Part shown: positions 1 through 57,111 of the stretch, in pieces
How positions within the stretch are numbered: position 1 is the first letter of the stretch
Layout of the letters: each line of letters opens with the position of its first letter
Source of the DNA: a virus
Taxonomy: Duplodnaviria; Caudoviricetes
DNA length: 57,111 nt
Virus record (IMG/VR): IMGVR_UViG_3300037847_002035
Span: 1-57,111 of that record
Reading direction: 5' to 3' (one strand)
Program-made: the position numbers and the translations under genes
The notes under the pieces: model-generated
Seen by the model: the letters and a program-made list of their open reading frames with translations, nothing else
The model's database searches: none
Told to the model about the DNA's origin: nothing

Positions 1-2
1 CA

Positions 3-806
3 ATGTTAATATTTGCTGATGACTTTGATCAACTCAATGTCTTTTCCAGATATATCGCAGGTCTACTAAAAGCATCTAACTTCTACTCATCATCTACTGA
101 TGATCAGATAAAAGCGATTGCGGCAGACTTCGTTGCAAAAGTTGTAGAAGCAGACTGGATGTTTAACTATATGAACATTCATGAAGACTTACTAGATGTG
201 GATGCATACTGTCAGAATATGATTACCACTCATGGAATGTTTTCTAATACATATCAGAACGGTGCTAACTTTAGTTACGATCTATTGTTCTATCTCAATG
301 ATCATCAAAGAAACTCTAGTGTCCAAGGTCTAATCAAAGAGAAATTCACTATCCACTCAAACACCATGGCAAAAGATGTGATGGAGCACTTTACATCACG
401 TAGACATTACATGGCATATTTTCTGGCAGTGATTGATTGGATGAATGCAAATGGATTTCCAGTAGACAAAGATGCGTGGGTGAAAGAAACATATCTAAAC
501 TTAGCAAACAAAGGGCAATACACTCAAGCATTCTATAAGATGGAAGAACAATGGAACCGTGTAAAAGATGACTCAGACTTTATTGCCGCACACCAATCTA
601 AAGCAGATAGCGCGGCAGATGGTTGGGAGTATATGGATCTTTACACAGAGTTTAAGAATGCATTCCCTATTGTGAGAAAAGTTATTCAACAAGATTACGA
701 TATGGATAATCTAACGGAAGATATTAAACTGATAAATACTGACGTTCAGTTCTTCTCAAAGAGACAAAACAGGATACCTTATTTGATTCACAAATACCCA
801 TTGTAG
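3..806 (+). CDS. hypothetical protein of the rSAM cluster (possibly 5'-truncated at the window edge)
   Basis: 267-aa ORF at the head of the + strand operon; no motif recognised. Confidence 0.75.
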   Translation: MLIFADDFDQLNVFSRYIAGLLKASNFYSSSTDDQIKAIAADFVAKVVEADWMFNYMNIHEDLLDVDAYCQNMITTHGMFSNTYQNGANFSYDLLFYLNDHQRNSSVQGLIKEKFTIHSNTMAKDVMEHFTSRRHYMAYFLAVIDWMNANGFPVDKDAWVKETYLNLANKGQYTQAFYKMEEQWNRVKDDSDFIAAHQSKADSAADGWEYMDLYTEFKNAFPIVRKVIQQDYDMDNLTEDIKLINTDVQFFSKRQNRIPYLIHKYPL

Positions 807-814
807 GATATATT

Positions 815-1552
815 ATGGAAACTATATGTTATGCTTTGCCACTTGCTCCGCAAGATTTAGTTGGCATTTATAAAGAAAAAGATGAAAGTGAAAAAGAGTA
901 TGTTCTCTATGTTGATTACGACAAGACAACTGAGAAGTTAACAGATCAGCATATTCTAATATATCTGGCAAACACGAACTTCAAAACTTCTTTCGATAAA
1001 ATAACTCCTAGTTTAGTACAAGAATTTATCAAGACTAATTTTCTTGTGCATTGTCCTATGCTCAGTAGAATTGTTGCTATGATATTGAAAGTTTATTTGA
1101 AATGGGATTTGACAGATGGTGAGAAACTATTAACTCAAAATCTATTCACCATGGAACAGATCGATGAGTTTATCAAACTCAATACAAATTTAATTGAGGA
1201 TCTGATTGAAGTTATCCAAGGGTTGTTTCCGTACACGTTATGGAAATTACATTCTCATATGGACGATCCGTCTATAGAACCTAATCTAGTAAAGTGCGTA
1301 GAAGAAATAGAGATTGTTGATCATCCTCTCAATATAGGTCCAAATATCGCCAGGTTGGTTACAGATTGTGTTGATGTTTTGTATTTGGTATTCCATATAC
1401 GAGGAGTTTCTCAAAAATTCAATAAACAAATTTATAATGATAATCCTAAATATCATGGAAGTGATTTGTTTTATCTTATGAACCAAACCAAGATTGTAAA
1501 CTGTATTATTGAAATGCTACCAGAGGATTTCTGGCATGATAAGACTGAATGA
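815..1552 (+). CDS. hypothetical protein of the rSAM cluster
   Basis: 245-aa ORF with AGGA RBS; overlaps the next gene. Confidence 0.8.
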   Translation: METICYALPLAPQDLVGIYKEKDESEKEYVLYVDYDKTTEKLTDQHILIYLANTNFKTSFDKITPSLVQEFIKTNFLVHCPMLSRIVAMILKVYLKWDLTDGEKLLTQNLFTMEQIDEFIKLNTNLIEDLIEVIQGLFPYTLWKLHSHMDDPSIEPNLVKCVEEIEIVDHPLNIGPNIARLVTDCVDVLYLVFHIRGVSQKFNKQIYNDNPKYHGSDLFYLMNQTKIVNCIIEMLPEDFWHDKTE

Positions 1553-2555
1553 TACCTATGCAGGGTACTACACATATGATAAAGACCACAGTCCGTCTAA
1601 CGTTGATTTTCTAAGGACGGAGATAAATCTTGACATCCTACATGGATGTGATCAGATGTGTCCTGGTTGTTTTATTCCCAGAAAGAACTTAACTAACGCA
1701 GATCATCTAAAAGATCTGTACGAACTATTAGTCAATGGCAGTTATCACCCAGACGAAATAGTTATAGGTCCTACCGACATATTCGATGCCCAAAACTTTG
1801 AGGAGATAATGAACCATGAGTATATGTTTAAACTTTATGAGATTTCTGCAATTGGATTCACGTCTACACTTCTACAACCATATTGGGTAATCAAATCAAA
1901 ACTAGAGAAGATATGGAGTTTGTATGCTCACATAAAAAGAGTACCCGACATAGACTTCAAGATTGTTTTAGATATAGACAAATACCTTGACGGTGAACTA
2001 GATGACTGGTACAAGAAGTTAAAACTATTCGTGAATGGTTCTGTACAGTTCAGGGTAAATTATTATAAAGGTGTCTTTGACAGAATTAGTTATAATGAAT
2101 TGTGTCAGAAAGCATATGATGACTTCCATGCACCAGTCGTAATCACCCCATCATTCTTGACAGACAGAAATGCTAGAGGTAAGGTAGAGCAACATCTAGC
2201 AAACTTTCGTAAAGATATGCTAGATCAAAAGATAGATGATAAGTGGAAAGAATACTACACATTCTTTGATGCTAAGTTCAACGGTTATGGTTGCCAGAAC
2301 TATAGTTTCTATAACGGCAAACTATATGTAAATCCATTCTTGTATGATGCAATTATTCAGAGGACTCCATTCTTTGAAACGACAATGGATGAGAACAAGT
2401 TATATGATAATATAGAATATGCACAACAGGTAGATGATTGTAATGGTTGTGAATACATGATGAGTTGTGCTGAGAGAAATGTTCACATGTATATGGAGTC
2501 AAGAGACTTGAATAGTTGCGTAGCAATTAAAGAGTACATGTATGCCACTCATTAA
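1536..2555 (+). CDS. radical SAM protein, divergent 'IGPTD' paralog 1
   Basis: CDQMCPGC (CxxxCxxC), IGPTD, C-terminal CNGC-x5-C...C; start moved to ATG 1536 after GAGGA. Confidence 0.85.
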   Translation: MIRLNDTYAGYYTYDKDHSPSNVDFLRTEINLDILHGCDQMCPGCFIPRKNLTNADHLKDLYELLVNGSYHPDEIVIGPTDIFDAQNFEEIMNHEYMFKLYEISAIGFTSTLLQPYWVIKSKLEKIWSLYAHIKRVPDIDFKIVLDIDKYLDGELDDWYKKLKLFVNGSVQFRVNYYKGVFDRISYNELCQKAYDDFHAPVVITPSFLTDRNARGKVEQHLANFRKDMLDQKIDDKWKEYYTFFDAKFNGYGCQNYSFYNGKLYVNPFLYDAIIQRTPFFETTMDENKLYDNIEYAQQVDDCNGCEYMMSCAERNVHMYMESRDLNSCVAIKEYMYATH

Positions 2556-3699
2556 GAACAACCTATATTACGAACTTACTACAGAGACACAGACTAAACC
2601 AGTATCTGCAGTGAAGATCCAGATGGACGTGTTGGATGGTTGCCACCACAAGTGTCCTGGTTGTTTTGTTCACCGTAGAGGCAACGCAAGCAATATAGAT
2701 CAATTAGCACAAGCAAAGGAGTTTGTCAAGAATATAACTGACAGAGGAATATTAGTTGACGAGGTCCTAATCGGACCTACAGACTTCCTTGCATCTGAAA
2801 ACTTCTATGAAGTAATGCCAGAACTAGAGGACATGATCAATGATAATTCACCCATACTTGCTTTTGTTAGCACTCTTATTGACGGTGACATTGTGCAGTT
2901 TTGTGATTGGATAACTGAGAGAATAAACCTAGACACAGAGATAGAGATAGGTATTGCAATAAACCCCCACAAGTTTTCTGAACAAACCTATTTACAAAAC
3001 ATCAAAGATAAGTTATGGTACATAGACAGAAACCTAATGCATGAGGTGACCTACACATTTGTTGTGAATATAAGAGACTATGGATTGGACTACACAGTTC
3101 TTCATGATAAGGCAGTGAAAGAGTTCAGCACTATCCTAGATTTTATTCCTTCTGTATCTCGGTCACACAAACCAAATATAATACTCAGCACACTATCGAA
3201 GTTCAACGAATACTTCAACGAGATTAGTAAGGACACCAAGTTAAATAATATTATGGTTGACCACTCACATGCAGGAATGAACTATACTGTTCTCAACTAC
3301 AAGAGAGGCGATTGGTATCTCAGTCCGTTTATGTATGAGAACATGGCAATCTATGATGATAGTCTCAAGGTAGAATCTTTTGACGATGTAGTCCCAATAA
3401 CTGAATCACAAATAAATAGAGCAAAGGGTACAGAGTGTGAAGACTGTCCATTGTTCTTTAGTTGCTACAACCGTAAGATAATTCTATTACGAGATTATCT
3501 GGGAGTCAAGCATTGCATTGCACCGAAAGAGAATATGCTAAACAACATACACAATTACAATGCACCTGCACAGACAATGTATCAATGGGATGGTTACAGC
3601 GTAGAGAATGATAAACGAGGATATCGAAAGAAGTTTTTGGTGACAGAAGATAACGATCCAGAACTAGAAAGAATAAAGAATATATCTTATGTTAAATGA
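2542..3699 (+). CDS. radical SAM protein, 'IGPTD' paralog 2
   Basis: CHHKCPGC, IGPTD, C-terminal CEDC-x5-C...C. Confidence 0.85.
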   Translation: MPLIKNNLYYELTTETQTKPVSAVKIQMDVLDGCHHKCPGCFVHRRGNASNIDQLAQAKEFVKNITDRGILVDEVLIGPTDFLASENFYEVMPELEDMINDNSPILAFVSTLIDGDIVQFCDWITERINLDTEIEIGIAINPHKFSEQTYLQNIKDKLWYIDRNLMHEVTYTFVVNIRDYGLDYTVLHDKAVKEFSTILDFIPSVSRSHKPNIILSTLSKFNEYFNEISKDTKLNNIMVDHSHAGMNYTVLNYKRGDWYLSPFMYENMAIYDDSLKVESFDDVVPITESQINRAKGTECEDCPLFFSCYNRKIILLRDYLGVKHCIAPKENMLNNIHNYNAPAQTMYQWDGYSVENDKRGYRKKFLVTEDNDPELERIKNISYVK

Positions 3700-4834
3700 C
3701 GAATGGAAAAAGATTGTAGTTGATGGGAATAGACTTGAAGAGTTTACTGCTATCTCTGCCATGTCCCAGTATAAGATACAACCTCAGTTAGAGATACTTG
3801 AGGGTTGTTCCTATATGTGTCCTGGTTGCTTTGTCAAACGTAAGGGCAACTGGAGTCCGTACTCTATTCATCTTTTCTGGGAACTCGCAAAGGAACTTAT
3901 GGGTAGAGAGGACATTGTATTGGATGACCTTGTCATCGGTCCTACCGACTTCTACGGTGCAGAAAACCTAGAGACGATTATAGAAGAAGTCAAACTGGCA
4001 GAAGGTATCATGATGATGCCTGAAGATAATCGCAATGTTCAACACAATTGTTCTATCCTTGGTTCGTTGTCTGAAAAAGATATAGAGGGAAAGATCCGTA
4101 AAATAGAAAAGTCACTGGTGGGGAGCGTGGTTAAGTCTTGGGACGTACAGGTGGCATTAGATGTTAAAAGACTTCTTTACGATAAAGAGTATAGGGGAGC
4201 ACTCGATAATCGTATCGAAACATTTAAGGAGTCAAGTCTTAACTATGAGATATCCATGGCAACAAATATAGTTGACGGTATCGAAGATATGATCTATGAT
4301 GCGATTGATTTAGTCAGAGAAGAATACCAGACAGTGATAGAGATCTTACCATCCGTAGTGAGATCATTTGACCACAGTCCAAAGCATGGAGAGAAACTAT
4401 TCGAGTGGAACGACATGCTCACGAAGTTATCTACTGACGAAAAAAGATTTAAAACAAAATTTCATTTCCTACAAGGTGACGTTTCCCATAAAGCATTCCA
4501 CTACTCCGTGATAAACATACACAATGGAAGAATGTTCATGGCACCTTTTATATACGAGAATGCACAGATATACAATGATGCTTTTCTTATTGACATTACC
4601 CAAGGTGGTGATATAGTGGATCGTATATTAGAACATAAGCACTGGATTGTCAACCACCAAATTCAAAACTCTCAGTTGACAGAGTGCCATACCTGTAAGT
4701 ATTTAAATATATGTTCTCACCGACTTGTCCCCAGAGTAATGGAAACAGTATTCGAGAACAGGAAAGAATGTATTCTAAATAAAGACGTGATACAACTATT
4801 TGACGATGAGGTTTATTATGGGAATAGTTACTGA
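3689..4834 (+). CDS. radical SAM protein, 'IGPTD' paralog 3
   Basis: CSYMCPGC, IGPTD, C-terminal CHTC-x5-C...C. Confidence 0.85.
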   Translation: MLNDEWKKIVVDGNRLEEFTAISAMSQYKIQPQLEILEGCSYMCPGCFVKRKGNWSPYSIHLFWELAKELMGREDIVLDDLVIGPTDFYGAENLETIIEEVKLAEGIMMMPEDNRNVQHNCSILGSLSEKDIEGKIRKIEKSLVGSVVKSWDVQVALDVKRLLYDKEYRGALDNRIETFKESSLNYEISMATNIVDGIEDMIYDAIDLVREEYQTVIEILPSVVRSFDHSPKHGEKLFEWNDMLTKLSTDEKRFKTKFHFLQGDVSHKAFHYSVINIHNGRMFMAPFIYENAQIYNDAFLIDITQGGDIVDRILEHKHWIVNHQIQNSQLTECHTCKYLNICSHRLVPRVMETVFENRKECILNKDVIQLFDDEVYYGNSY

Positions 4835-5843
4835 TAACAAATCCCACGCACAAGCAGACAAAGACTTTGATCTTAGTTTTAGTGAAGGACACGAGATCAA
4901 GGTGCAGTTCAACTGTGAGATCTTGTCTGGTTGCGAGTTCAAGTGTAAAGGTTGTTTCGTAAATAAACTAGGATCTAACGTAGGGGATTTTCAAAGACTC
5001 AATGATGCTATCGACTTATTCAATGAAAACGGTTACCGAGTTTCTACAATCAATATCGGACCTACTGATATATTCGGTAACAATAATGTTCTAGAATTGT
5101 TACAAGATGAAATATTTCGTGAATGTTTATCTAAGGTAACTACAATACAATTCGTAACAACTCTATCAGAACAAATAGATCTTAGGGTTATAGATCTACT
5201 AAACAGTATACCCAAGAAGGAAGGTTTTATGTACGACTGTAATGTGGTCGTAGAACATCCTGTTGTCTGGGGAAGTCTTCAGTCAAGACTCAACATGCTC
5301 AACCTATTCGAAGATGACCTAAACTATTATTTCGTTTACAATATGGGTAATGATGACGAAGACAATGAAAAGGTTCTAGATCTATCGAAGGTGACAGACA
5401 GATACTTTGATACGATACTACAACTCAACCCATCATTCTTTCGCGCACCCAAGAGTAAAGTGCAAAAGCATATGATTGAGAAATGGAAGAGTTATGATTT
5501 CAGTCACGACATGTACCCCAAGACAATTGCTGATCAGGCACAGGGTGGATCTTTAGAACTAAACTTTACTTACTGCAACGAGAGATTTTTCTGGACACCA
5601 TTTGTCTACGACATTGTCATGATAGGAACTGATGAGTTCGAAGTCAAGGAAGAGTGGAATATTAATTCTTGGACGAAGGTGAAAGAAGATCAATTTTTAA
5701 ATCAATTAGAATATACTGCAGAAACAGAACAATGTGCAATGTGTCCCAAACAGATGACGTGTATTGACAAAGGGGTCATCAGTTACATGAAGCATCACGC
5801 ACTTACCAGTTGTGTCTTCCCAGACTTTATTCGATCCATGTAA
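4818..5843 (+). CDS. radical SAM protein, 'IGPTD' paralog 4
   Basis: CEFKCKGC, IGPTD, C-terminal CAMC-x5-C...C; start ATG 4818 after GAGG. Confidence 0.85.
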   Translation: MGIVTDNKSHAQADKDFDLSFSEGHEIKVQFNCEILSGCEFKCKGCFVNKLGSNVGDFQRLNDAIDLFNENGYRVSTINIGPTDIFGNNNVLELLQDEIFRECLSKVTTIQFVTTLSEQIDLRVIDLLNSIPKKEGFMYDCNVVVEHPVVWGSLQSRLNMLNLFEDDLNYYFVYNMGNDDEDNEKVLDLSKVTDRYFDTILQLNPSFFRAPKSKVQKHMIEKWKSYDFSHDMYPKTIADQAQGGSLELNFTYCNERFFWTPFVYDIVMIGTDEFEVKEEWNINSWTKVKEDQFLNQLEYTAETEQCAMCPKQMTCIDKGVISYMKHHALTSCVFPDFIRSM

Positions 5844-6892
5844 TTAAACCACATTCGCATTACGCAGTCAGGTAGATCTCTTTCTCGGTTCTTCCAGTCC
5901 CATTGGGTGTAGCATCTAAACCCACACTTATCCCACCACTTACAAGAAAGACAACCGTGTTCATCCATGTATGCTTGCATCATACTGGCATTGTCTTGTC
6001 GGTTCAGTGGTGTGTTGAAATCTGATTTAGTGTAGCGATCCCACCTGCAGTTTGATATACTATTGTTCGGAAAGATAGTAACCTTGTTCAATGCCATGCA
6101 ATGCATGTGGTTATTCTCATTCTTTATAAGATCACTAATAGGGTTAATGTCGGGATAATTATGAAATATGAAGGTGAGGAAATCAAGGTAGAGACTATCA
6201 GATGGGATAAGATGGTCGAAACCTTTATCAGGAATATAATCGTCAAAGTAAAAATTATCAAACTTACTATAGAGATAGTGAAAATACTCATCGTCATCTT
6301 TCATAAACCTTTCTATAGACGGAACCGTTGCAACCATATTGATTGACGTAATGTAGTCGGCAAAGTATTCTATGTTCTTGCCGTAAGGTCCTCGTACTGG
6401 TCTACCATCAAAGTCATAGGAACAAATAATATAGGATGGTATATCTGCTTCATTCAAATCATCTAGGAGTTTTTGTACTTTGTCTCTCTTACTAAATTGA
6501 AACGATGTTACCCAAACAACTTTTATTTCTTGTTCGTATTTATCGTACAATTTCTTTATCTCTATCAGCATATCATAATAGACATCGTATGCCCAATCAG
6601 AGATCCTGTCTTGGAATAGTTCACCCCCAACCATATTGATCTGGCACGTCTTAACCATCCCCTGCATTTTCTTCAGGTGATCCTCAACAAGAGGTATCTT
6701 AGAGAACATTCCCTCACGAGAAAGACCAACTGTCGATTTCTTGTCGTGGTGACAGAAAGCACAGTTCAGGTGACAGTTCTCGAATAGCGTGAGTTCTATC
6801 TCACCTATGTTCGGTCTCTTCTTCTCTAGTAAGACTTTTGTAAAGTCAAAGTTTGTCAAACAGCATTTCCTCGTGGTAATACTCTCGGACAT
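5795..6892 (-). CDS. radical SAM/SPASM protein
   Basis: CHLNCAFC, GGEL, C-terminal CLSC-x5-CGFRC...C; real start may be TTG at 6859. Confidence 0.9.
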   Translation of the reverse strand: MSESITTRKCCLTNFDFTKVLLEKKRPNIGEIELTLFENCHLNCAFCHHDKKSTVGLSREGMFSKIPLVEDHLKKMQGMVKTCQINMVGGELFQDRISDWAYDVYYDMLIEIKKLYDKYEQEIKVVWVTSFQFSKRDKVQKLLDDLNEADIPSYIICSYDFDGRPVRGPYGKNIEYFADYITSINMVATVPSIERFMKDDDEYFHYLYSKFDNFYFDDYIPDKGFDHLIPSDSLYLDFLTFIFHNYPDINPISDLIKNENNHMHCMALNKVTIFPNNSISNCRWDRYTKSDFNTPLNRQDNASMMQAYMDEHGCLSCKWWDKCGFRCYTQWDWKNRERDLPDCVMRMWFNYMDRIKSGKTQLVSA

Positions 6893-7244
6893 CTGGGCAC
6901 ATACCCTTGTCCTCGTTGAATTCTAATCTTTTCAAAATCGCATCATATGTTTCCTTGTCTTGACTGTATCTCCGAAAGTATGGATCTTTCGGGATCAGAT
7001 CAGCATCGTCTAGCACTGTATAAAAGTCTTCTTTGAAATCTTTCTCTATCCATTTGGCATAACAGATAGCAACGAAGTAAGACTTAGCAGGGTAGATCCA
7101 GTCGTGCACCTTTATATTGAAATGTAGTAGTGCGTCTTCCACAACTGTATCTGGTCTGAAGTTTATTGGCACTCCTTCTAAATCATCTTTATACACTGAC
7201 TCCATCAAGTGGTAGGCGTTGGATCTTGCTTTCCATTCTTGCAT
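6846..7244 (-). CDS. hypothetical protein inside the rSAM operon
   Basis: 132-aa ORF overlapping both neighbours; contains YPAKSYFVAICYA. Confidence 0.8.
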   Translation of the reverse strand: MQEWKARSNAYHLMESVYKDDLEGVPINFRPDTVVEDALLHFNIKVHDWIYPAKSYFVAICYAKWIEKDFKEDFYTVLDDADLIPKDPYFRRYSQDKETYDAILKRLEFNEDKGMCPDVREYYHEEMLFDKL

Positions 7245-8130
7245 AATCTAATAATCCTTTATATCCATTACAACTGTGTGTTAGGTCTTTTACATATCTA
7301 TAATGTTCGGTCAAACATTTACCAAAGTATTCACAACTCTTACATATTCCAGACACGTTGTCAGTCTTTTCTTTCTCTGTCCACTTTATATAATCATCGT
7401 ATGAGTCAAGTTCAAGAAAGTATTCGTGGTCATTCTTATCAAACTCTAATACACCAAACCTGCCATTGGGTGTGATGTAAACATGATCATCACTGAATGC
7501 ATTGTATTGACCAGATAGCGAGTCTTCTATTCTAGCGGCATTCTCAAAGTGGAACTTCTTGTCTGGGTGCTCCAACCATTTTATAACAAAGTCTTCGAAG
7601 TCCTTATGCGTTACATTATGTTGGTTTGCTTGATTGGTCGAGTATGGTTTTATCTCTACACTCACAACATTAGAAACCATGTTCAAAGTAAATATCATAA
7701 AGTCCACGTCCATCTGCAATACCTTTTCGGATGCCAGTATCAGAACAGCAAGTTCTTTATTTGCATCCATCATATTACTGAGGACATGTTGTTGCTTCTC
7801 TCTTGCATCAAAGTCATACGATACCGATAATGTTATATCATCATCCCTAAAGAAGTCAGGGAAAGCAGAGAGGTTCGTGTTTATATTTATTTCTCCATCG
7901 TAGTATTTACGAATAACATCTTTCATCGAATAGAAATAATCTGGTCGAAGCAAACCAACTTCACCCCCATAGAGATCTATATGGTTTATCTCTGGGACTT
8001 CTGACAGTCTCTGATCTAATACTGAAAGTGTAATCTGTTGTCTATCACCTAATTGTTCTGGTGTCAAGTAGCAAAAGTCACAACGGAAGTTACAGTAGTA
8101 GGTAGGGTTAATGGACAGATTCATCGACAT
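7189..8130 (-). CDS. radical SAM protein with C-terminal Cys cluster
   Basis: CNFRCDFC, YGGE, CKSC-x5-C...C. Confidence 0.9.
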   Translation of the reverse strand: MSMNLSINPTYYCNFRCDFCYLTPEQLGDRQQITLSVLDQRLSEVPEINHIDLYGGEVGLLRPDYFYSMKDVIRKYYDGEININTNLSAFPDFFRDDDITLSVSYDFDAREKQQHVLSNMMDANKELAVLILASEKVLQMDVDFMIFTLNMVSNVVSVEIKPYSTNQANQHNVTHKDFEDFVIKWLEHPDKKFHFENAARIEDSLSGQYNAFSDDHVYITPNGRFGVLEFDKNDHEYFLELDSYDDYIKWTEKEKTDNVSGICKSCEYFGKCLTEHYRYVKDLTHSCNGYKGLLDYARMESKIQRLPLDGVSV

Positions 8131-9145
8131 AGGGAGTCACACCGTCTGGGTTCATTTTGTTTATCTCTAATATTCTGGGAGCAAGTGTTTTCATTTGTCT
8201 GCAGTGTTCTTCTACAGTTCCCTCTCGCTTCATGTCTCTGACAGTTTTCTTACAACCATTACAGATCTCAAACATAGGGCAAGTATAACATGACATCTTC
8301 ATAGTCTGGATGAGAGGATCATCTTGTAATGGTGTTTGCATCTCACCGTTCATCTCTTCATCGAAGTTTATTTCGTAGTCGAGATCATCTGCAAGTGAAC
8401 CACAGGAATAGTAATCACCGCCAGGATTGAAAGCACGAATACCTTCATCACATTTTCTATTCTGGGGACAACTGGTTGCAGAACCACCAAGTCTCTTCAT
8501 CATTGCTTTGGTATTGTATTCCCAAGGGTGAAGACCTTGATCGTAGATATCAACGTATGTCTTATACATCTTGCTCAACCGATAGGTATTGCCTTGGACA
8601 CCAGATGCCATGGCATAATTCAATTTACATTCTACATCCATTTCCTTGGCAAGTTTTACATTGTCGATAGCACGATAATCATTCATATCTGTAATCACTG
8701 CAATAAAGTCTGGTCTTTCTCCGCAGTACTTCAACATTGCGTCCGATACATTCCAGAAGTCTTCCTCAGTAAATTCACTGAAGTCTCCTTTGAGTCTACC
8801 ACCCCCATACTGAAAAGATGTGCAGACACCCATACGCGGATGATTGAATAGATCAACCCACTTCTCTGGTTTTACATAGAAAGGCCAAAGGTTAGTTGTG
8901 AATGAAATGTATGCAGGGTAGTCGTGTTCATCTAGATGCTCTATCAGTTTCCAATAGTAACTAGGATCTACCATCAACGGATCTCCACCATTGATAATCA
9001 AAGATTTGGTTTCAGGGTATCTTTTCAGAAACCTGAAGATATAGTCCATGTCCAATAAACCTGCATTGTTCGGATCGATTGCAGTCGAAGAACAAAACGA
9101 GCATTTGAAATTACATGCCTCTGTTGGTTTTATTATCAGATCCAT
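8108..9145 (-). CDS. radical SAM/SPASM protein
   Basis: KPTEACNFKCSFC, NGGDP, CYTC-x5-CNGC. Confidence 0.92.
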   Translation of the reverse strand: MDLIIKPTEACNFKCSFCSSTAIDPNNAGLLDMDYIFRFLKRYPETKSLIINGGDPLMVDPSYYWKLIEHLDEHDYPAYISFTTNLWPFYVKPEKWVDLFNHPRMGVCTSFQYGGGRLKGDFSEFTEEDFWNVSDAMLKYCGERPDFIAVITDMNDYRAIDNVKLAKEMDVECKLNYAMASGVQGNTYRLSKMYKTYVDIYDQGLHPWEYNTKAMMKRLGGSATSCPQNRKCDEGIRAFNPGGDYYSCGSLADDLDYEINFDEEMNGEMQTPLQDDPLIQTMKMSCYTCPMFEICNGCKKTVRDMKREGTVEEHCRQMKTLAPRILEINKMNPDGVTPYVDESVH

Positions 9146-10170
9146 TGTTTCTCTTTCGCTAGTTTCATCATTAGAGTTTTAGGTGCAGGACATACATCAT
9201 CCATCCAAGTTAACTGATGACAGTCAGAGTGGCAGTATAAAAACACTGGGCACTTGTAGCATCTCTCATCTCTTTCATGCATCTCACAAGAGATGATCTC
9301 CATTCGTTTAGGTAGAGTTCTCACTTCTTTTGCATTCATATCTATATGACCGTAGAAATCTACAGGTGCAGAGTTAGGGCATCCTGCCACTGTCCCATCT
9401 GCATTTATTGTGTGTATCTTTTGTTCACAATCTCTACAAAAGGTTCCGTTGAAGAACTGGTTTCTATCGTCAAACTTAGCATAGACTGAATCCAAGAAAC
9501 CATTTGCTACTGGATGGTTTTTGGTAGTCTCGTGCATTAACATCCACCAAGCATCTAGTTCTCTATTGTGAGGAAAGATGTCTGGGTTCAATGTGGCATT
9601 ACCGTTGTGAGTCAAACGTTCATAAGATATTTCGCTGACACCAAGTTCTTCCATGTAGTCTGCAATCTCTAATGGATGTTTACTGACAACATCTTTGGTA
9701 ACTGAAATAAAACACTTGACATCTAGTCCTTGTTGTACTAATGTGTATACATTGTTTTCCCACAATCGAAGTTGCCTATCATTAGCAAACCTGATATTAG
9801 AATCCCAACTAGTAGCAACATATCCACCAGAGATACAATTGTTGAAGAAGTCTAGGTGTTCTGCTTTTAGTTTGTACGTCAGGTTAGTGGTGATGCCGTG
9901 TGTACAGCGATCACCCCAATTGTCTTTTGTAATATCATAGAACTCCAATAGATCTTTCATTGGAGCAAGCATAGGTTCTCCTCCATGATACTCAAGATGT
10001 ATGAGATTATCCCCAGTGTCTAATTGATTACACCAGTTTGCAGTTTTCACAGGATCGAAGTAAATCTTCCTTCCGTTAGTTCCTGATGTAAAACAATGGG
10101 AGCAATTTAGATTGCAGGTCTCAGTGGTCTTTATGTATGCGATTAAGTGTTTCTGTGTCGCCAATGCCAT
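9136..10170 (-). CDS. radical SAM/SPASM protein
   Basis: KTTETCNLNCSHC, HGGEP, INADGTVAGC, CYKC-x5-CHSDC. Confidence 0.92.
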   Translation of the reverse strand: MALATQKHLIAYIKTTETCNLNCSHCFTSGTNGRKIYFDPVKTANWCNQLDTGDNLIHLEYHGGEPMLAPMKDLLEFYDITKDNWGDRCTHGITTNLTYKLKAEHLDFFNNCISGGYVATSWDSNIRFANDRQLRLWENNVYTLVQQGLDVKCFISVTKDVVSKHPLEIADYMEELGVSEISYERLTHNGNATLNPDIFPHNRELDAWWMLMHETTKNHPVANGFLDSVYAKFDDRNQFFNGTFCRDCEQKIHTINADGTVAGCPNSAPVDFYGHIDMNAKEVRTLPKRMEIISCEMHERDERCYKCPVFLYCHSDCHQLTWMDDVCPAPKTLMMKLAKEKQWI

Positions 10171-10588
10171 GGGATGCGATTAATGCCTTTTCATAATTTA
10201 ATGCTTTGTGTTTAGTTCCTGCAGGGATCATTAGTTTATCCCCGACTGTTAATATTACTTCTAGACCGTCAACCTCTAGAGATTTAGATCCTGCTTTGAC
10301 TTCAATAATAACGTCTACTGGATCTGTGTGTTCATCAAAGGTAGGTCCGAACTTTGGGTTATAGAATAGATGAATTGTTCTATCGTCAAACTTCCAATGA
10401 CGTTCCATCTGTTCTACTTTTATTGTTACCTTCTCCTCTGCCAAATGCCTCGCCATTTGAGATTGATAATCCCAATAATGAAAGGTGTCTATTTGATCTT
10501 GCAACCCACCCTCTCGTATTATAGATACGTCATGTGATTTGAAGCATTTCTCAGATAGCAGGAAATCCTCGAAGTCTTTAAAGTTCAT
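10121..10588 (-). CDS. cupin/JmjC-like (RoxA/YcfD-type) oxygenase
   Basis: HTDPVD (HxD) metal ligands, GSK, IPAGTKH distal His. Confidence 0.7.
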   Translation of the reverse strand: MNFKDFEDFLLSEKCFKSHDVSIIREGGLQDQIDTFHYWDYQSQMARHLAEEKVTIKVEQMERHWKFDDRTIHLFYNPKFGPTFDEHTDPVDVIIEVKAGSKSLEVDGLEVILTVGDKLMIPAGTKHKALNYEKALIASHGIGDTETLNRIHKDH

Positions 10589-10612
10589 TTACGTTCCTTA
10601 TATATAAAAGAG

Positions 10613-10620
10613 TATTTATA
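10613..10620 (-). promoter_or_regulatory. T4-type late promoter (TATAAATA) of the minus-strand rSAM operon
   Basis: + strand TATTTATA about 25 nt upstream of the 10588 start codon. Confidence 0.7.
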
Positions 10621-10631
10621 ATGAGGTTACA

Positions 10632-41664: not shown

Positions 41665-41687
41665 AATTTGTATTTAGAGAGGTTATT

Positions 41688-42134: not shown

Positions 42135-42144
42135 GGAGAGTTTA

Positions 42145-42300: not shown

Positions 42301-42318
42301 ATAAGACTGTGTCATAAT
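42290..42318 (+). promoter_or_regulatory. sigma70-like promoter
   Basis: TTGACA-17-CATAAT. Confidence 0.7.
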
Positions 42319-42342
42319 ATATTTGTAATGAGAGGAGATATT

Positions 42343-46536: not shown

Positions 46537-47762
46537 TGCAATTTTCGGATTTCATAACAGAACAAAAGAATACACACATGACACACATTGAGGACAAGGT
46601 TCTTTATGGTGGAGTCAAGGGAACTCGTGATGCTATCCTTGCTTTACGATCTCTACGTGACATGCTTGGGGGTGAAGGGGATGGTAAGGTATCTGTTAAG
46701 TGGGACGGTGCTCCTGCTATTTTTTGCGGAACCGATCCACGAGACGGAGAGTTCTTTGTTGCTAAGAAAGGAATCTTTGCCAAAACACCAAAAGTCTATA
46801 AAACAAATGCAGACATTGATGCCGATACCAGTGGAGACCTCAACGCTAAAATGAAATTGGCATTAAAACATTTACCTGAGTTAGGAATAAAAGGTATCAT
46901 TCAAGGGGATTTTTTGTATTCTAAGAATGATGTAAAAACAAAAAAGATTAAGGGGAAGGACTATGTTACCTTTCATCCAAATACTATCGTCTATGCGGTG
47001 CCTAGAGAGTCGGATGCATCTGATGCTATTATCAAAAGTAAAATTGGAATCGTCTGGCACACAACCTACAAGGGTAACTCCTTCGAGTCTCTCCGCGCTT
47101 CGTATGGAGTTGATGTATCCAAGTTTAACTCAACCAGAAATGTGTGGAGTCAAGACGCAACGCTCAGGGATTTAACTAACCTAACTATGAATAGGAAGGA
47201 TACAGATGAAGTTAATGAATATCTATCAACTGCTGGTAAAATATTTAACCAGATTAGTGGGACTACTCTTAGGACTCTTGAAAAAGATCCTGCGCTTGCC
47301 CAACTTATTGAGCAATTTAATAATACGTATGTTCGCAGGGGTGAAGTCATTAAGAATACCAAGACCCACGCTTCGCGTCTCATTTCTTGGATTAAACAAA
47401 AATACCAAAAAGAAATCGACAAGCGGAAAACGGAAAAAGGGAAGTCCACGCAACAAAAAAAGTTAGACGAAATACTAAGTTTCTTTTCACCAGGGAACCG
47501 CCAATCTCTGGTGAAAATGTTTGATCTACAGAAGGTCATAGTTCTTGCGAAAATGAAACTTATAAATAATCTTAATAAACTCTCAAACGTAAAGACGTTT
47601 CTCAAAACCAAGAGGGGATATCGTGTTACAGGACAAGAGGGTTATGTCGCTATAGACAAACTTGGTGGTGATGCAGTGAAAATTGTTGACCGTATGGAGT
47701 TCTCCTACGCTAACTTTTCACCGAATATATTAAAGGGATGGGACAAACCAGGAAGGAATTAA
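46536..47762 (+). CDS. conserved T4-like protein with ligase-like KWDG motif (DUF6267-like)
   Basis: HMTHIED, KWDGAPA, QGDF, EGYV, KIVDR.EFS. Confidence 0.7.
   Translation: MQFSDFITEQKNTHMTHIEDKVLYGGVKGTRDAILALRSLRDMLGGEGDGKVSVKWDGAPAIFCGTDPRDGEFFVAKKGIFAKTPKVYKTNADIDADTSGDLNAKMKLALKHLPELGIKGIIQGDFLYSKNDVKTKKIKGKDYVTFHPNTIVYAVPRESDASDAIIKSKIGIVWHTTYKGNSFESLRASYGVDVSKFNSTRNVWSQDATLRDLTNLTMNRKDTDEVNEYLSTAGKIFNQISGTTLRTLEKDPALAQLIEQFNNTYVRRGEVIKNTKTHASRLISWIKQKYQKEIDKRKTEKGKSTQQKKLDEILSFFSPGNRQSLVKMFDLQKVIVLAKMKLINNLNKLSNVKTFLKTKRGYRVTGQEGYVAIDKLGGDAVKIVDRMEFSYANFSPNILKGWDKPGRN
47561..47568 (+). promoter_or_regulatory. possible internal late promoter
   Basis: TATAAATA about 200 nt upstream of 47764. 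Confidence 0.4.
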
Positions 47763-51422: not shown

Positions 51423-51875
51423 ATGGCAACAAAGGTGAGTGAAAATACCGAGGTAGCATTACCACTTCGTAATATAATTAGTATGATTGCAGGTGCATCA
51501 ATTGCAACATGGGCATACTTTGGTATTGTAGAAAGACTAAATCAAATTGAAACTAACCAGACTATGATGAAGGCAGACTTAGAAATGAATACTGAATTCA
51601 GAATTAAGTGGCCTCGTGGAGAAATGGGTTCATTACCTGCAGACAGTGAACAATTTATGTTAATTGAACACTTAGCAAATGAACTTGATAAACTAACAGA
51701 CGAAATCGAAAGCGGTCAAGCACCGTTTGACCAACAACAAAAACTAACATTGGAGTTTTATGAGAAGCGAATAAACCAACTTGAAGAAGCACACGAAAAG
51801 ATACGTAACGATATAATGGACATGGTACACGAAATGAACGGCATGAAACCCAGTGGAAGACATAATGGACATTAG
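51423..51875 (+). CDS. membrane-anchored coiled-coil protein
   Basis: N-terminal TM helix, WPRG..GSLPAD, heptads. Confidence 0.75.
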   Translation: MATKVSENTEVALPLRNIISMIAGASIATWAYFGIVERLNQIETNQTMMKADLEMNTEFRIKWPRGEMGSLPADSEQFMLIEHLANELDKLTDEIESGQAPFDQQQKLTLEFYEKRINQLEEAHEKIRNDIMDMVHEMNGMKPSGRHNGH

Positions 51876-51877
51876 AT

Positions 51878-52135
51878 ATGGTAATAGAAGCATTCATTCT
51901 TTTAATGTGGTTCGGAAACCCGATGGAATTAAAAGAGTATACAGTTCGTGATGGATTAGGTGATTGCTTAAAAGCAAAAAGAACTATTGAAAGAACCTTG
52001 CGAGGCGGTAAGTCTAGCGAATATACAGGTTCTGTTCGACTGGGTTGTAAAGAACTCAAAGTCGAAGTTAGTGATGATGGTCTGTACATCATAAGAAACT
52101 TTATTGATGCAGATCCCAAAGAACTAAACCCATAA
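51878..52135 (+). CDS. small putatively exported two-Cys protein
   Basis: hydrophobic N-terminus, DCLKAKR...GC. Confidence 0.7.
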   Translation: MVIEAFILLMWFGNPMELKEYTVRDGLGDCLKAKRTIERTLRGGKSSEYTGSVRLGCKELKVEVSDDGLYIIRNFIDADPKELNP

Positions 52136-52147
52136 GAAAGAAGGGCA

Positions 52148-52426
52148 ATGGCAGATACGACATCAGATCGTCTAGTACGAATAGAACAAAAATTAGAACG
52201 AATGGAAACCGTACTCATTGCGATTGCTCGTTTTGAGGAAAAGATGGATGCTTATAATGAGTATCGTGAAAGATCATGGGAACGTATGAACAAGTTCTCA
52301 GAAAAACTCGATAATATCGAGAAGAAAGTAAACGAAAACGCCCATACAGTTGGCATTATAAATAAAGTAGTATATGCCGCTGTTGTAGCGGCAGTAGGGA
52401 CTTATGTCGCCCACATGTGGATGTAA
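52148..52426 (+). CDS. coiled-coil protein with C-terminal TM helix (XhlA/holin-like architecture)
   Basis: RLVRIEQKLE heptads plus C-terminal hydrophobic helix. Confidence 0.6.
   Translation: MADTTSDRLVRIEQKLERMETVLIAIARFEEKMDAYNEYRERSWERMNKFSEKLDNIEKKVNENAHTVGIINKVVYAAVVAAVGTYVAHMWM
52357..52364 (+). promoter_or_regulatory. T4-type late promoter
   Basis: TATAAATA about 75 nt upstream of 52439. Confidence 0.55.
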
Positions 52427-53271: not shown

Positions 53272-53285
53272 TATATAATATTGTT

Positions 53286-53645: not shown

Positions 53646-54232
53646 TGGGTATTCTAAAATCTGCGGCAGATACAGTCTATGCTTTTCGTTTTATACGAAT
53701 GCTTGTAATGAAATGGGAAAACTGGGACGCATACAAAGAAGGTATTATTGATGCTAACGGAAAGAGAGTAAAGGGTGTTACGATCAACACTTCTGAGAAA
53801 CAGTCTGCTTGGACTCCTTTCATTCGCTTGTGCGCTAACGTTAAAAGGTTGTTATCAAAAGTACCAGGAGGGGGAACTAAACTCGGAAGTTTTGCGGCAG
53901 CACTCTTTCTCATTAAGGAAAAGACAGGAATAACAGATTCTCAATTAAAAAAGATTTGTGAAGAATTCAACATAGAACCACTAGACTTTTTGAACGAGAA
54001 CAGCGAATGGTTTGTATTAGAGGATAGGCAACTATCACCAGGTGTGTATAGGATTGCTAATGAAAAGGCAGTGAACAGTAGCATTGAAGTTATTTGCAAA
54101 CCGAAAGATCAGATACGTGTGTTAGACGAAGCGTATCCAGTTGGTGATGTATTTGGAGTTGACATCTATGAAGCAACCCACATGAGGACGAACCAGAAAA
54201 TTTACATTACTATAAACGAGATATCAAAATGA
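53645..54232 (+). CDS. conserved T4-like protein
   Basis: AYK.GIID..G, KRLL.KVP, AAALFLIKE. Confidence 0.8.
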   Translation: MGILKSAADTVYAFRFIRMLVMKWENWDAYKEGIIDANGKRVKGVTINTSEKQSAWTPFIRLCANVKRLLSKVPGGGTKLGSFAAALFLIKEKTGITDSQLKKICEEFNIEPLDFLNENSEWFVLEDRQLSPGVYRIANEKAVNSSIEVICKPKDQIRVLDEAYPVGDVFGVDIYEATHMRTNQKIYITINEISK

Positions 54233-55014: not shown

Positions 55015-55017
55015 TCC

Positions 55018-56508
55018 ATGAGTCGTATTCGAGACATTGCTTCAATACTGTCAAACACAGAGCAAGCGAACCCAGATAACAATGCTATAGATGCTTCTAC
55101 AGGTGCAAGCACTAGAACGTCAGTTTTTACTTCTTTGGACTCTCTACCTATAACTGGTTTGTCATCTGGTCAACAAGCATTCATCACTTCAACCAATAGA
55201 CTTTATGTTTCTAATGGATCTGGTTGGTACAATACCGCATTAATAAGCGCAGATCCTAATTGGGATTCTTCTCCACTTACTGAATATACTATTGTTGACT
55301 CAGTAACACCTCTCGTCATTATAGCAAAAGCAACAGACTCAGATAATATAAATTTATTAAATCAAAGTGTGGCAAGTGACTCTGCCCAGTACATGGTTGA
55401 CATAACCATAGATTCTTCAGTATTTACATTTACTCCAAAGAGTGCTGATTCTGTAGGAGAAGCAGTCGTTGCAGGTAATCTAACAGATTCTAATGGTGAT
55501 TTTATTTACACGTTTAAGTGGTCGGATGGCGTTAACTTTGTCACTCAACAAGCAACCATAACTTATAGTCCTGCAAGTGCGACAGGTATTTCTTATCTTG
55601 GCACTAGAGGTTTTCATGCAGGTGGTAATGGTAGCACTTTCAATATCGGTTATTTCGATATAACCACTAGTGCGAATACTGCATACTTTGGTGACATGCA
55701 AGGTAAGTTTTCTCAGATGGGTGGAGTAGGTGATGGTGCTAGAATAGTAACTATGGGTGGTTATGATAATAACAAATCTCCTCCAAGATCAGATCAAATT
55801 CAATATTGGGCATCCGCAACCACAGGTAATGCTTTAGACTTCGGAAATCTTACGCAGGTAAAAGAAAAGACTGATGGTGTGGTAGGCGATGCTACTAGGG
55901 CAGTTGTTGGCGGTGGATATGGTGCTTCTAGTTCAGTTGTAAATGAGATGGATTATATCACTATTCAAACGACAGGCAATGCTCAAGACTTTGGAGATCT
56001 TACTCAGGCACGTGATGAGATTGGTAATACGAATGATGCTACACGTGGTGTTTTTATACAAGGGGAAATCTCAGGTCAGGTAAACACCCAAGATTATATT
56101 ACAGTTCAAACGACAGGTAATGCAACAAGTTTTGGTAATGCTACTCATTCTGTGTATGGATGTCATTCAGGTATTTGTGCCGATGAAACAAGAGGTCTGT
56201 ACATGGGTGGTATAACTTCAGGAAATAGTTATGCATGGGATACGATAGAGTACGTAGTTATACAGACTACAGGTAGTGCTACAGATTTTGGTAATATGGA
56301 TAACGGTAGAAGTAATGTTATGGCATGTAGCGATGGAACGACAGGTGTGATAATGGGTGGTTTTGCATATCCTACAGGTCCTTCTACTCAACATATACAA
56401 AAAGTAACTATACAAACCACAGGTAATGCAACCGATTTTGGTGGAGACATTTATGGATCTGGAAGCAATACGCAGGATGGTGCAGGAATGTCAGGGAATG
56501 CCGCATGA
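55018..56508 (+). CDS. virion structural/tail-fibre-like protein with repeat (beta-propeller-like) C-terminus
   Basis: Gly/Thr/Ser-rich; six TTGNAxDFG-type repeats. Confidence 0.75.
   Translation: MSRIRDIASILSNTEQANPDNNAIDASTGASTRTSVFTSLDSLPITGLSSGQQAFITSTNRLYVSNGSGWYNTALISADPNWDSSPLTEYTIVDSVTPLVIIAKATDSDNINLLNQSVASDSAQYMVDITIDSSVFTFTPKSADSVGEAVVAGNLTDSNGDFIYTFKWSDGVNFVTQQATITYSPASATGISYLGTRGFHAGGNGSTFNIGYFDITTSANTAYFGDMQGKFSQMGGVGDGARIVTMGGYDNNKSPPRSDQIQYWASATTGNALDFGNLTQVKEKTDGVVGDATRAVVGGGYGASSSVVNEMDYITIQTTGNAQDFGDLTQARDEIGNTNDATRGVFIQGEISGQVNTQDYITVQTTGNATSFGNATHSVYGCHSGICADETRGLYMGGITSGNSYAWDTIEYVVIQTTGSATDFGNMDNGRSNVMACSDGTTGVIMGGFAYPTGPSTQHIQKVTIQTTGNATDFGGDIYGSGSNTQDGAGMSGNAA
55198..55225 (+). 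repeat. 28-bp direct repeat, copy 1
   Basis: AGACTTTATGTTTCTAATGGATCTGGTT, identical at 56721-56748. Confidence 0.85.
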
Positions 56509-57111
56509 CCGTTAGTAAAGCAAGAAACATAGCAACCTTCTTAGGTAGAACAGATAGTGCGAACCCGAATGAACTTCGCCTTTTGCACACTGGTGAACTT
56601 ACAGGTATTGATAGTGACACTGTTCTCAGTATAAATGGAGTTCAATTTTTTAATACTTTAGACTCACTTCCTGTTAGTAATTTACGAGAAGGACAGCAAG
56701 CATTTGTTGATGAAAGTAAAAGACTTTATGTTTCTAATGGATCTGGTTACTATAATGCATTAACAGTGAACAATGCACCTTTTTGGGATTCCGTACCGCT
56801 TGATGAATATACTATAGTTGATTCAGCAACACCTCTGATCATCAAAGCAGATCCTGGTGACTCTGATGGAACCGAATTATTTATCAACCAGAGTTTCGGA
56901 TCTGACTCTGCACAATTCATGGCAACAGTAACTAATGACTCATCCGTATTTACGTTTACCCCAAAGACCAAAGCAGAGATCGCAAGTGCAGTCGCGGCAG
57001 GAAATCTCACAGATTCTGATGGAGATTTTACATACACATTCAAATGGTCTGACGGTATAAACTTTGTTGCTAAAGCGGCAAACATAATTTACAATACCGC
57101 TTCTACTGCTT
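56505..57111 (+). CDS. paralogous virion protein, 3'-truncated by the window
   Basis: ATGA overlap; MTVSKARNIA...LDSLP...RLYVSNGSG...FTFTPK...YTFKWSDG.NFV matches the N-terminus of the previous gene. Confidence 0.85.
   Translation, partial: MTVSKARNIATFLGRTDSANPNELRLLHTGELTGIDSDTVLSINGVQFFNTLDSLPVSNLREGQQAFVDESKRLYVSNGSGYYNALTVNNAPFWDSVPLDEYTIVDSATPLIIKADPGDSDGTELFINQSFGSDSAQFMATVTNDSSVFTFTPKTKAEIASAVAAGNLTDSDGDFTYTFKWSDGINFVAKAANIIYNTASTA
56721..56748 (+). repeat. 28-bp direct repeat, copy 2
   Basis: identical to 55198-55225. Confidence 0.85.

Follow-up and report, generated by a model that had tools for sequence, protein, structure and literature searches.

The tetranucleotide RGCY (R, purine; Y, pyrimidine; hence AGCT, AGCC, GGCT, and GGCC) is nearly absent from IMG/VR virus record IMGVR_UViG_3300037847_002035 (Duplodnaviria; Caudoviricetes), a stretch of 57,111 nt with 38% GC that is the entire record of this genome, as one linear contig, and is called the window below. 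CheckV estimated that the window holds approximately 32% of the genome. Its open reading frames (ORFs) included the T4-type replication and recombination genes for UvsY, UvsW, gp46/47-like proteins, the gp45 clamp, the gp44/62 loader, RegA, primase, UvsX, and a DnaB-like helicase, together with a family-B DNA polymerase and genes for ThyX, MazG, Hsp20, and sugar-nucleotide enzymes. By its polymerase, the closest named phage was 'Phage C48C1' (52% identity), followed by T4-like cyanophages and OM43/SAR11 myophages (46-48%); a near-identity search of phage records gave short polymerase or helicase matches only. Because the nearest polymerases belonged to these phages, the window represents about one third of an uncultured marine T4-like (Kyanoviridae-like) myovirus. 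A direct count gave no AGCT, AGCC, or GGCT and four GGCC, at exactly the four positions listed in the initial annotation of the sequence. In the following, L-numbered names denote fetched loci and G-numbered names (G001-G015) contigs of relatives, all of which are fragments. The polymerase and the four sites lie as follows:

22657..25185: family-B DNA polymerase, assigned by family scans
8883..8886, minus strand: GGCC forced by Trp-Pro (TGG-CCT) in ORF 8108..9145, conserved in G006
22087..22092, plus strand: GGCCGG, an avoidable GGC-CGG (Gly-Arg) in ORF 21715..22596, overlapping the only CCGG of the window (22089..22092)
42649..42652, plus strand: GGCC, an avoidable GGC-CAT within an AT-rich nuclease ORF of a variable cassette
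51610..51613, plus strand: GGCC forced by Trp-Pro in ORF 51423..51875, conserved in L201

AGCT, AGCC, and GGCT were the only tetranucleotides missing from the window, and their sister words were frequent (AGCA, 293; GGCA, 249; TGCT, 223; TGCC, 144). Base composition predicted 504 RGCY sites against the four observed. With independent flanks of the GC core the expectation was 174 (observed: RGCY 4, RGCR 636, YGCY 433, and YGCR 533), and a second-order Markov model also gave 174 for the four words summed (58.4+39.0+46.0+30.7), the z-values of the single words lying between −5.6 and −9.5. In 300 synonymous-codon shuffles of 81 ORFs, a set from which five short opposite-strand ORFs were dropped and in which 51655..52218 on the minus strand was replaced by 51423..51875 on the plus strand, 288.4 ± 11.6 RGCY sites (range 251-328) were expected. 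The other three classes around the same core, RGCR, YGCY, and YGCR, stood at 1.03-1.06 of expectation, and approximately 430 copies of AGCT, AGCC, and GGCT together were expected where none was found. The observed/expected ratio of these three words was thus 0 under both the Markov and the codon-shuffle nulls, far from the value of 1 near which, according to the initial annotation, its claim of RGCY avoidance would fall.

The loss was present in all three codon phases. Alanine codons of the form GCY occurred in 0 of 362 cases after a purine-ending codon and in 270 of 629 after a pyrimidine-ending codon, a pyrimidine-starting codon followed AGC or GGC in 2 of 138 cases, and NAG or NGG stood before CTN or CCN only as TGG-CC, twice. 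These two correspond to the sites at 8883 and 51610, in agreement with the earlier remark that two sites were forced by Trp-Pro; the frame at 51610 was deduced from coordinates. The TGG-TTR usage described at first for the Trp-Leu pairs then checked extended to all 16, which used TTA or TTG and in no case CTN. The avoidance also reached the protein level: Trp-Pro occurred once or twice against 9 expected from composition (Pro-Trp, 8), and places where relatives have Trp-Pro were occupied in the window by LP, FP, MP, WS, or WE, in small numbers of 1-2 per relative. In the AT-rich stretch 39959..43786 there was one RGCY against approximately 21 expected, so that the AT-rich cassettes largely comply, as had been remarked. 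Because the loss extended over all three codon phases and into AT-rich cassettes of foreign composition, it concerned DNA and not protein, and these results supported strong negative selection on RGCY at the DNA level. The initial annotation had proposed such selection, and the mixed replacements and the graded distribution among relatives described below agreed with it.

When 819 RGCY sites of non-depleted relatives were aligned codon by codon to the window, the window had RGCR at 151, YGCR at 65, YGCY at 58, nGTn at 125, nACn at 82, and other cores at 338 of them, the commonest single change being T>A at position 4. The replacements were mixed and followed no single mutational path; any change that destroyed the word was used. 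The avoidable GGCC at 22087 was found at the aligned place in L001, G006, G007, and G008 (77-100% local identity). The ORF that contains it (21715..22596; lysozyme-like, with a PG_binding_1 domain and 45% GC) had homologues in depleted relatives only. An artefact of assembly or library was ruled out, since independent contigs of other records (L001, L002/G006, L121, and L122) were equally depleted.

The distribution of the depletion was followed in a tree of 80 IMG/VR loci sampled by polymerase homology (65-100% identity). Sixteen rows, the window among them, formed a supported clade that was depleted throughout, with RGCY observed/expected ratios of 0.01-0.31:

window, L001, and L002: 0.01
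L010, L012, L014, L017, and L018: 0.02-0.08
L003-L009 and L011: 0.16-0.31

In the sister group of this clade (3 rows), L037 had a ratio of 0.15; elsewhere on the tree depletion was found in L048/L049 (0.10) and L068 (0.34), and most of the other loci lay at 0.7-1.45. Among whole contigs, G006 had 3 RGCY sites in 37 kb, G009 had 2 in 15.9 kb, G007 had 128 in 62.6 kb, and G008 had 109 in 57 kb; the non-depleted G001-G005 had 364-939, approximately the expectation. HTVC008M, Melnitz-2, C48C1, and AG-345-O18 were partly depleted (0.25-0.40 in the parts fetched). RGCY depletion is therefore a clade-specific, graded trait that also occurs in a few unrelated lineages. The residual sites of G007 and G008 were shared with non-depleted relatives at 5-32% of aligned places, and pairs of non-depleted relatives shared 13-31% (chance, <1%). 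Because the sharing matched that of non-depleted pairs, the residual sites of G007 and G008 are old ones that still await removal, and the purge is progressive and ongoing, with the lineage of the window furthest advanced. Relaxation after a complete purge in the part of the clade near 0.2 was rejected, as the residual sites are ancestral.

Other short palindromes were lost in parallel. CCGG occurred once in the window against 73 expected from composition and 38 ± 5 from the codon shuffle (z −7.2), its sole copy overlapping the GGCC at 22087. GCWGC (W, A or T) occurred once (53897..53901) against 45 expected, and CGWCG was absent against 45. Since RGCY avoidance alone would only about halve GCWGC, the loss of this word was a separate effect. 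The avoided sets differed among relatives: GCWGC was normal in G007-G010, CGWCG stood at 0/51 in G007 and 19/50 in G008, and G008 also had CGCG at 0/82 and TTAA at 88/483. Such a changing panel of short palindromes, each tolerated or nearly erased, is the known signature of restriction-site avoidance. All-or-none losses of this sort were also seen in other marine phages, cultured or known from single cells: in HTVC010P (L289) and HTVC011P (L290), GGCC, CCGG, and CGCG were all at 0, GCGC at 0 and 1, and AGCT was not depleted (179 and 150 copies), with GATC and TCGA also at 0 in HTVC011P; CGCG was at 0 in HTVC008M (L118) and Melnitz-2 (L119), and CCGG, GCGC, and CGCG were at 0 in AG-345-O18 (L120).

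GATC, which was at 0 in many contigs, was over-represented in the window (310 against 194 expected), where a methyltransferase gene was found by family scan:

26592..27425, plus strand: D12-class (Dam-like) N6-adenine methyltransferase

Of the 146 loci of 8 kb or more, seven had homologues of this enzyme; they belong to about five separate lineages (L001/L002, L037, L048/L049, C48C1, and L151). All seven had RGCY ratios of ≤0.33 and none was found in non-depleted loci, a co-occurrence for which a shared host range is the likeliest explanation. The GATC ratio was 1.3-2.1 in six of the seven, and in the ten loci with GATC below 0.15 the enzyme was found in none. GATC in these phages thus illustrates both strategies, protection by an enzyme and avoidance.

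Candidate enzymes of cytosine modification were found in some relatives of the window. A C5-methyltransferase (PF00145) was encoded upstream of uvsX in G003 and G005 and was found in none of G001, G002, and G004, all five being fragments; the idea that non-depleted relatives carry a methyltransferase in place of avoidance therefore met a mixed result among G001-G005. No PF00145 protein was found in the window or in G006-G009, no PF01555 protein in the fragmentary records of the 15 relatives searched (G001-G015), and no CmoX homologue in the window. In Synechococcus phage S-B43, CmoX is described as carboxymethylating the cytosine of GpC, with approximately 75% of GC sites modified (PMC12783734). 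A protein of G011 (145 kb; RGCY 602/1588) matched CmoX (PDB 8yf3) with an E-value of 1.5e-154, which implies GpC hypermodification in the phage of G011, as judged by homology. This homologue of the cytosine C5-carboxymethyltransferase lies at L280 1444..2592 and was aligned over residues 5-377. In a marine metagenomic study, RGCY carrying N4-methylcytosine (m4C) is reported as the most frequent methylated motif among viral metagenome-assembled genomes (V-MAGs), in 9 of them, and as one of the m4C motifs common to 'Myoviridae-like' V-MAGs, the enzymes being left unassigned (Hiraoka et al. 2022, PMC8919816). Pressure on words with a GC core seems to have been answered in three ways, by avoidance, by RGCY methylation, and by GpC hypermodification, and the same enzyme may stand behind all of them.

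No known restriction-enzyme family was found among the 68 window ORFs scanned against Pfam, PHROGs, and PADLOC, which were mostly those of approximately 80 aa or more. The initial annotation had named two ORFs as candidate phage nucleases behind the avoidance, starting at 42343 and at 45235. These ORFs, here called P0002 and P0003, and their neighbors are:

42328..42885, plus strand: P0002, PD-(D/E)XK-type nuclease by predicted fold and motif, 185 aa, 31% GC
42863..43786, plus strand: P0001, N6_N4_Mtase protein with a DPPY motif, 307 aa, 26% GC, overlapping the P0002 ORF by 23 nt
45235..46536, plus strand: P0003, phrog_1462 protein of 433 aa, function not assigned
46536..47762, plus strand: DUF6267/phrog_455 protein, conserved neighbor of P0003 and anchor for a less biased sampling of relatives

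We consider it probable that the depletion reflects avoidance of the sites of restriction enzymes encountered in hosts, among them one that recognises RGCY as CviJI does. The phage would guard its DNA by lacking the target words of restriction and not by modifying them. The RGCY-cutting enzyme would most likely be carried by the host, on its chromosome or on resident mobile elements, and each RGCY site would lower the chance of a productive infection, so that mutations destroying sites would be fixed. Most of these would be synonymous, with GCY changed to GCR after a purine-ending codon, AGC or GGC to other Ser or Gly codons, and CTN to TTR after Trp, and a few would be amino-acid changes at Trp-Pro. 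The under-representation of RGCY against all nulls, the avoidance of several short (degenerate) palindromes, and the variation among relatives (0.01 to 1.45) are those of restriction-site avoidance. The depletion, its pattern at the codon level, its spread over a clade, its incomplete state in sister lineages, and the parallel avoidance of other palindromes are observed, whereas the nature of the agent (an endonuclease), its residence in the host, and its exact RGCY specificity are inferred. Restriction enzymes encountered in the host were preferred over a single phage nuclease mainly because the avoidance concerned several motifs and varied by lineage, CCGG, GCWGC, and CGWCG being co-avoided in varying sets. 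Of the agents suggested in the initial annotation, a host restriction system therefore gave the best reading, and the two phage nucleases were unsupported as the cause.

Classic cases of avoidance are staphylococcal phage K, which is reported to lack GATC, and Bacillus phages, which are reported to lack GGCC. The window shares with known restriction-site avoidance the near-complete, mainly synonymous, lineage-specific loss of short palindromes, with several motifs lost at once. It differs in that the word is the degenerate RGCY, in that the purge reaches the Trp-Pro dipeptide, and in that the link to a host system, which defines the known cases, is here presumed. Restriction-site avoidance in virulent phages is surveyed in Rusinov et al. 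2018 (PMC6286503). The phenomenon itself is thus known; literature searches on RGCY listed no paper that describes avoidance of this kind, and to that extent both the avoided word and how deeply it has been purged are new.

Several observations weigh against avoidance of host restriction. Both a bacterial enzyme specific for RGCY and host methylation at RGCY are hypothetical here. To our knowledge, no bacterial restriction enzyme is known for RGCY, and the characterised enzymes of this specificity all come from chlorella viruses (chloroviruses). As the window is approximately 32% of the genome, the remainder might encode a nuclease or methyltransferase of the phage for RGCY. The podophages isolated on Pelagibacter HTCC1062, HTVC010P and HTVC011P, were not RGCY-depleted (1.01 and 1.02), whereas the myophage of the same host, HTVC008M, stood at 0.25 in the 41 kb examined; for HTVC008M at least, the depletion thus does not simply follow from the host used in the laboratory. 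An explanation from the host side alone also fails to predict that close P0003 orthologues occur together with depletion. Four GGCC remain, of which the one at 22087 is both avoidable and conserved in the clade, so that selection at each site is not absolute. The efficiency of restriction can depend on the number of sites or on pairs of sites, and the long tolerance of a few widely spaced sites is easier to reconcile with a restriction of this kind than with a DNA-shredding enzyme of the phage's own. In addition, the motifs methylated in V-MAGs are reported to be rarely shared with prokaryotic metagenome-assembled genomes (PMC8919816), by a method that host 5-methylcytosine (m5C) would escape.

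Avoidance could also arise from phage-phage competition if the RGCY nuclease sat on other mobile elements, namely co-infecting phages or prophages with RGCY restriction-modification of their own, such as the marine myovirus-like phages that carry m4C at RGCY, and not on the host chromosome. We regard this as unlikely. The RGCY methylation in V-MAGs, together with the rare sharing of viral motifs with prokaryotic genomes (PMC8919816), speaks for it, as do the undepleted podophages of the laboratory host of HTVC008M and the swappable nuclease/methyltransferase cassettes at window 42328..43786 and L122 837..2206, from which phage-borne restriction systems appear to circulate in the group. However, an RGCY nuclease was identified in none of these phages, PF01555 was found in none of G001-G015, the m4C methyltransferases behind the RGCY motif are unassigned in PMC8919816, and the sequence signature would be indistinguishable from that of host restriction.

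The cassette was analyzed further. P0002 has the invariant residues D69, Q80, K82, and E91 (motif G-x-D69 ... Q80-x-K82 ... E91), and its AlphaFold2 (AF2) model, built with 32 homologues, had a pLDDT (predicted local distance difference test) of 88 and a pTM (predicted template modelling score) of 0.84. Foldseek matched the model in PDB to NhoI (E 4.5e-4), the N-terminal domain of Eco15I, I-Ssp6803I, Hjc, EcoRV, and PvuII, with modest template modelling scores of 0.4-0.5. P0002 is thus predicted, from its modelled fold and its D...(E/Q)xK motif, to be a PD-(D/E)XK nuclease, in line with the earlier proposal apart from the start, which lies at 42328 and not at 42343. P0001, whose best PDB sequence match was M.MboIIA, has a DPPY motif that we take to mark an adenine-type methyltransferase. 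In L122, which is 96% identical to the window on both sides, window 42350..43747 is replaced by a different pair (L122 837..2206), a 197-aa ORF with a D-x9-E-V-K motif and a 264-aa methyltransferase with an NPPF motif, and L122 was as depleted as the window (RGCY 1/68). Neither P0001 nor P0002 was found in 291 loci examined, and one scan of genome_contigs for a donor or host of the cassette found no relative of P0001. The cassette 42328..43786 is therefore a strain-variable, restriction-modification-like island. As the cause of the clade-wide depletion it was excluded, because it is replaced in the equally depleted L122 and because an adenine methyltransferase could not protect GGCC.

The slot of the cassette lies between an NT5C-like gene (41688..42134) and a DUF932 gene (43821..44777), and holds different AT-rich pairs of nuclease and adenine methyltransferase in different strains; in L201 it is occupied by a GmrSD_N/DUF262-like ORF (6073..7416). 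The slot resembles a swappable island for restriction-modification or defence that phages carry. A second AT-rich block (39959..41619, minus strand, 24-30% GC) contains a GNAT acetyltransferase gene (41191..41619) and ORFs of 322 and 102 aa without family matches. It was absent from all relatives compared, save for an overlap of L122 with the first 111 nt of the GNAT gene, and had no RGCY against approximately 8 expected, so that either its donor or its time of residence is compatible with the avoidance.

A phage-encoded RGCY endonuclease that shreds host or competitor DNA, and from which the phage's own genome is safe for want of the word, would be a further explanation; the enzyme could be P0003-type or encoded in the unsequenced two thirds of the genome, and relatives that keep many RGCY sites would then protect them by RGCY methylation or GpC hypermodification. 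There is a precedent: CviJI is an RG^CY nuclease of chlorovirus IL-3A that is accompanied by an m5C methyltransferase, and thus a virus-encoded enzyme with the same recognition word, directed against host DNA. Chloroviruses protect themselves by methylation, whereas the phage of the window avoids the word. The cytosine methyltransferase of such a system was not found in the window, approximately 32% of the genome, where the D12 enzyme and the DPPY-motif N6_N4 enzyme were the only methyltransferases. On balance we consider an endonuclease of the phage quite improbable, for reasons that center on P0003.

More than 600 homologues of P0003 were found in marine phage contigs. The family keeps an invariant motif pair, P-A-D ... 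S-L-K, which resembles the PD...SxK active site of the Cfr10I/NgoMIV group. In a language-model search, clusters containing RE_HaeIII and RE_HpaII were the nearest annotated ones (0.84, below the trust level of the tool), a lead that was not confirmed by hidden Markov model (HMM), PDB profile, or fold. Neither P0003 nor 38 members of its family matched a Pfam family, the RE_HaeIII and RE_HpaII HMMs did not match P0003, a profile search of PDB sequences found nothing for it, and its AF2 model (pLDDT 87) had no fold match in PDB (best E 1.5); its fold relatives were uncharacterised proteins of T4-like cyanophages and Campylobacter phages. The earlier designation of P0003 as a candidate nuclease was thus not upheld, and depleted genomes without the family exist. 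A hit to RE_HpaII elsewhere in the window (9012..9131; E 0.004, 11.7 bits) was rejected, as it lay on the opposite strand of a gene and contained a stop codon.

The presence of P0003 was compared with RGCY depletion across relatives, as had been suggested. The 49 loci that P0003 retrieved at ≥42% identity (L121-L168 and L171) all had RGCY ratios below 0.75, and 35 of them below 0.35. Loci with homologues of 33-40% identity mostly lay near 1, and so did most genomes with more distant family members (341-402 bits), the latter counting against a nuclease of this family as the cause. In a sample drawn through the neighboring DUF6267 gene, 62 loci covered the P0003 slot. The five with a strong profile match (at least 300 bits; here 679-688) had ratios of 0.01-0.08, all 20 with a weak match (19-202 bits) had ≥0.77, and of the 37 without a match, 31 had ≥0.7 and six 0.18-0.32. 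Four sister contrasts read off the DUF6267 tree all pointed in the same direction; however, the P0003 state changed four times on this tree, at most three informative independent pairs were available, again in the same direction, and the median p was 0.5. The association of P0003 with depletion is therefore not significant once relatedness is controlled. The co-occurrence of close orthologues stood, the independent events were few, and P0002 did not track the depletion.

Nor is the family needed for depletion. L201-L205, the closest sister group (RGCY 0.18-0.23), have in the slot an unrelated 354-aa ORF of which the first 16 residues alone are weakly shared, and no match to the family was found in the complete genomes of HTVC008M, Melnitz-2, and C48C1 (RGCY 0.25-0.33 in the parts examined). 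Two contigs point in different directions: G011 has a P0003-type gene together with approximately 600 RGCY sites and the CmoX homologue, which would provide self-protection, but in G012 (65% complete; RGCY 0.34), which also has a P0003-type gene, neither a PF00145 nor a PF01555 methyltransferase was found. Moreover, the four conserved residual GGCC would be targets of the phage's own nuclease, and a single nuclease would leave the parallel loss of CCGG, GCWGC, and CGWCG unexplained. That the P0003 gene travels with host range is the simpler account, and P0003 is retained as a weak candidate for an RGCY nuclease. It is very doubtful that P0003-type proteins, that is, orthologues of at least 42% identity, form a new fold family of RGCY-directed nucleases against host or rival DNA. 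If they did, self-protection would come from an RGCY-free genome in this clade or from cytosine modification at GC in relatives, and the system would be a bacteriophage counterpart of chlorovirus CviJI in which absence of the word is the self-mark.

The P0003 orthologues of at least 42% identity adjoined the DUF6267 gene wherever that gene fell within the locus. The position just upstream of DUF6267 is hypervariable: in the window, L201, G002, G003, and G005 it holds a P0003-type gene, a distant homologue of 27% identity, or unrelated ORFs of 258-354 aa. The products of the P0003-type gene and of the 354-aa ORF of L201 are alike at their start (F-x(2,3)-[FY]-L-x-E-G-x-L). The DUF6267 homologue of L201 contains V-K-W-D-G, which resembles motif I (KxDG) of nucleotidyl-transferase ligases; this motif suggests a ligase-like function for DUF6267.

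Mutational decay, in which m5C at RGCY is lost by deamination as at CpG in vertebrates, is hardly credible: although related marine phages do modify cytosine at RGCY or GpC and partial depletion is common in this phage group, the products of deamination were not enriched (GGTC 125 against 170 expected, GACC 73 against 123), the enriched words TGCT, TGCC, AGCA, and GGCA differ from RGCY by transversions in the flanks, just 207 of the 819 aligned sites had a GT or AC core, a C5-methyltransferase was found in neither the window nor G006-G009, and deamination cannot explain 0 of approximately 430 expected copies of three words or the lack of CTN in 16 Trp-Leu pairs.

Compared with avoidance of host restriction, two marine systems show how the same pressure may be met by modification. 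The m4C-RGCY 'Myoviridae-like' V-MAGs (PMC8919816) share with the window the word, the environment, and a related kind of phage, and methylation there could be an alternative way to neutralise an RGCY nuclease; those genomes keep and methylate the sites that the phage of the window has deleted, and the N6_N4 enzyme of the window is strain-variable with a DPPY motif. The CmoA/CmoX/CmoY system of S-B43, as described in PMC12783734, is a defence of a marine T4-like phage centered on the GC core of RGCY, with a close CmoX homologue in the relative G011; it works by chemical modification and not by avoidance, and neither PF00145 nor a CmoX homologue was found in the window.

Outside these subjects, the window contains a cluster of four to five paralogous ORFs of approximately 345-385 aa (2542..10170, both strands) with weak to moderate Radical_SAM matches:

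2542..3699: Radical_SAM-like paralogue (cluster on both strands)
7189..8130: Radical_SAM-like paralogue
8108..9145: Radical_SAM-like paralogue
9136..10170: Radical_SAM-like paralogue

Unannotated ORFs of similar size lie beside them; a cupin/JmjC-like ORF and then a 2OG-Fe(II) oxygenase come next (10121..11195), and among the 10 relatives' contigs compared G006 was the sole carrier of the cluster. An ORF of 157 aa at 37337..37810, similar to Na/Pi cotransporters, was 92% identical to G005 61526..61999, and an ORF in the variable slot of G002 (59418..60320) was PstS-like as judged from its N-terminal sequence alone. These similarities suggest phosphate-related auxiliary genes in the window, G002, and G005.

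In the window, abundant uncultured marine T4-like phages offer an unusually clean case of genome-wide word avoidance that reaches into protein sequence. The graded relatives, with RGCY ratios of 0.01, 0.08, 0.2, and 1.0, form a natural time course of site purging that is usable for measuring the strength of selection, and matching their avoided-word sets to methylomes could help to trace the responsible host system. If avoidance of host restriction is the cause, the depletion most likely points to an RGCY-cutting enzyme in the sea that has so far been undescribed. Such an enzyme would tie together the m4C-RGCY of marine V-MAGs, the GpC hypermodification by CmoX, and the avoidance seen here, and the prediction would be that cutting at RGCY exerts major selection on phages in the surface waters of the ocean.

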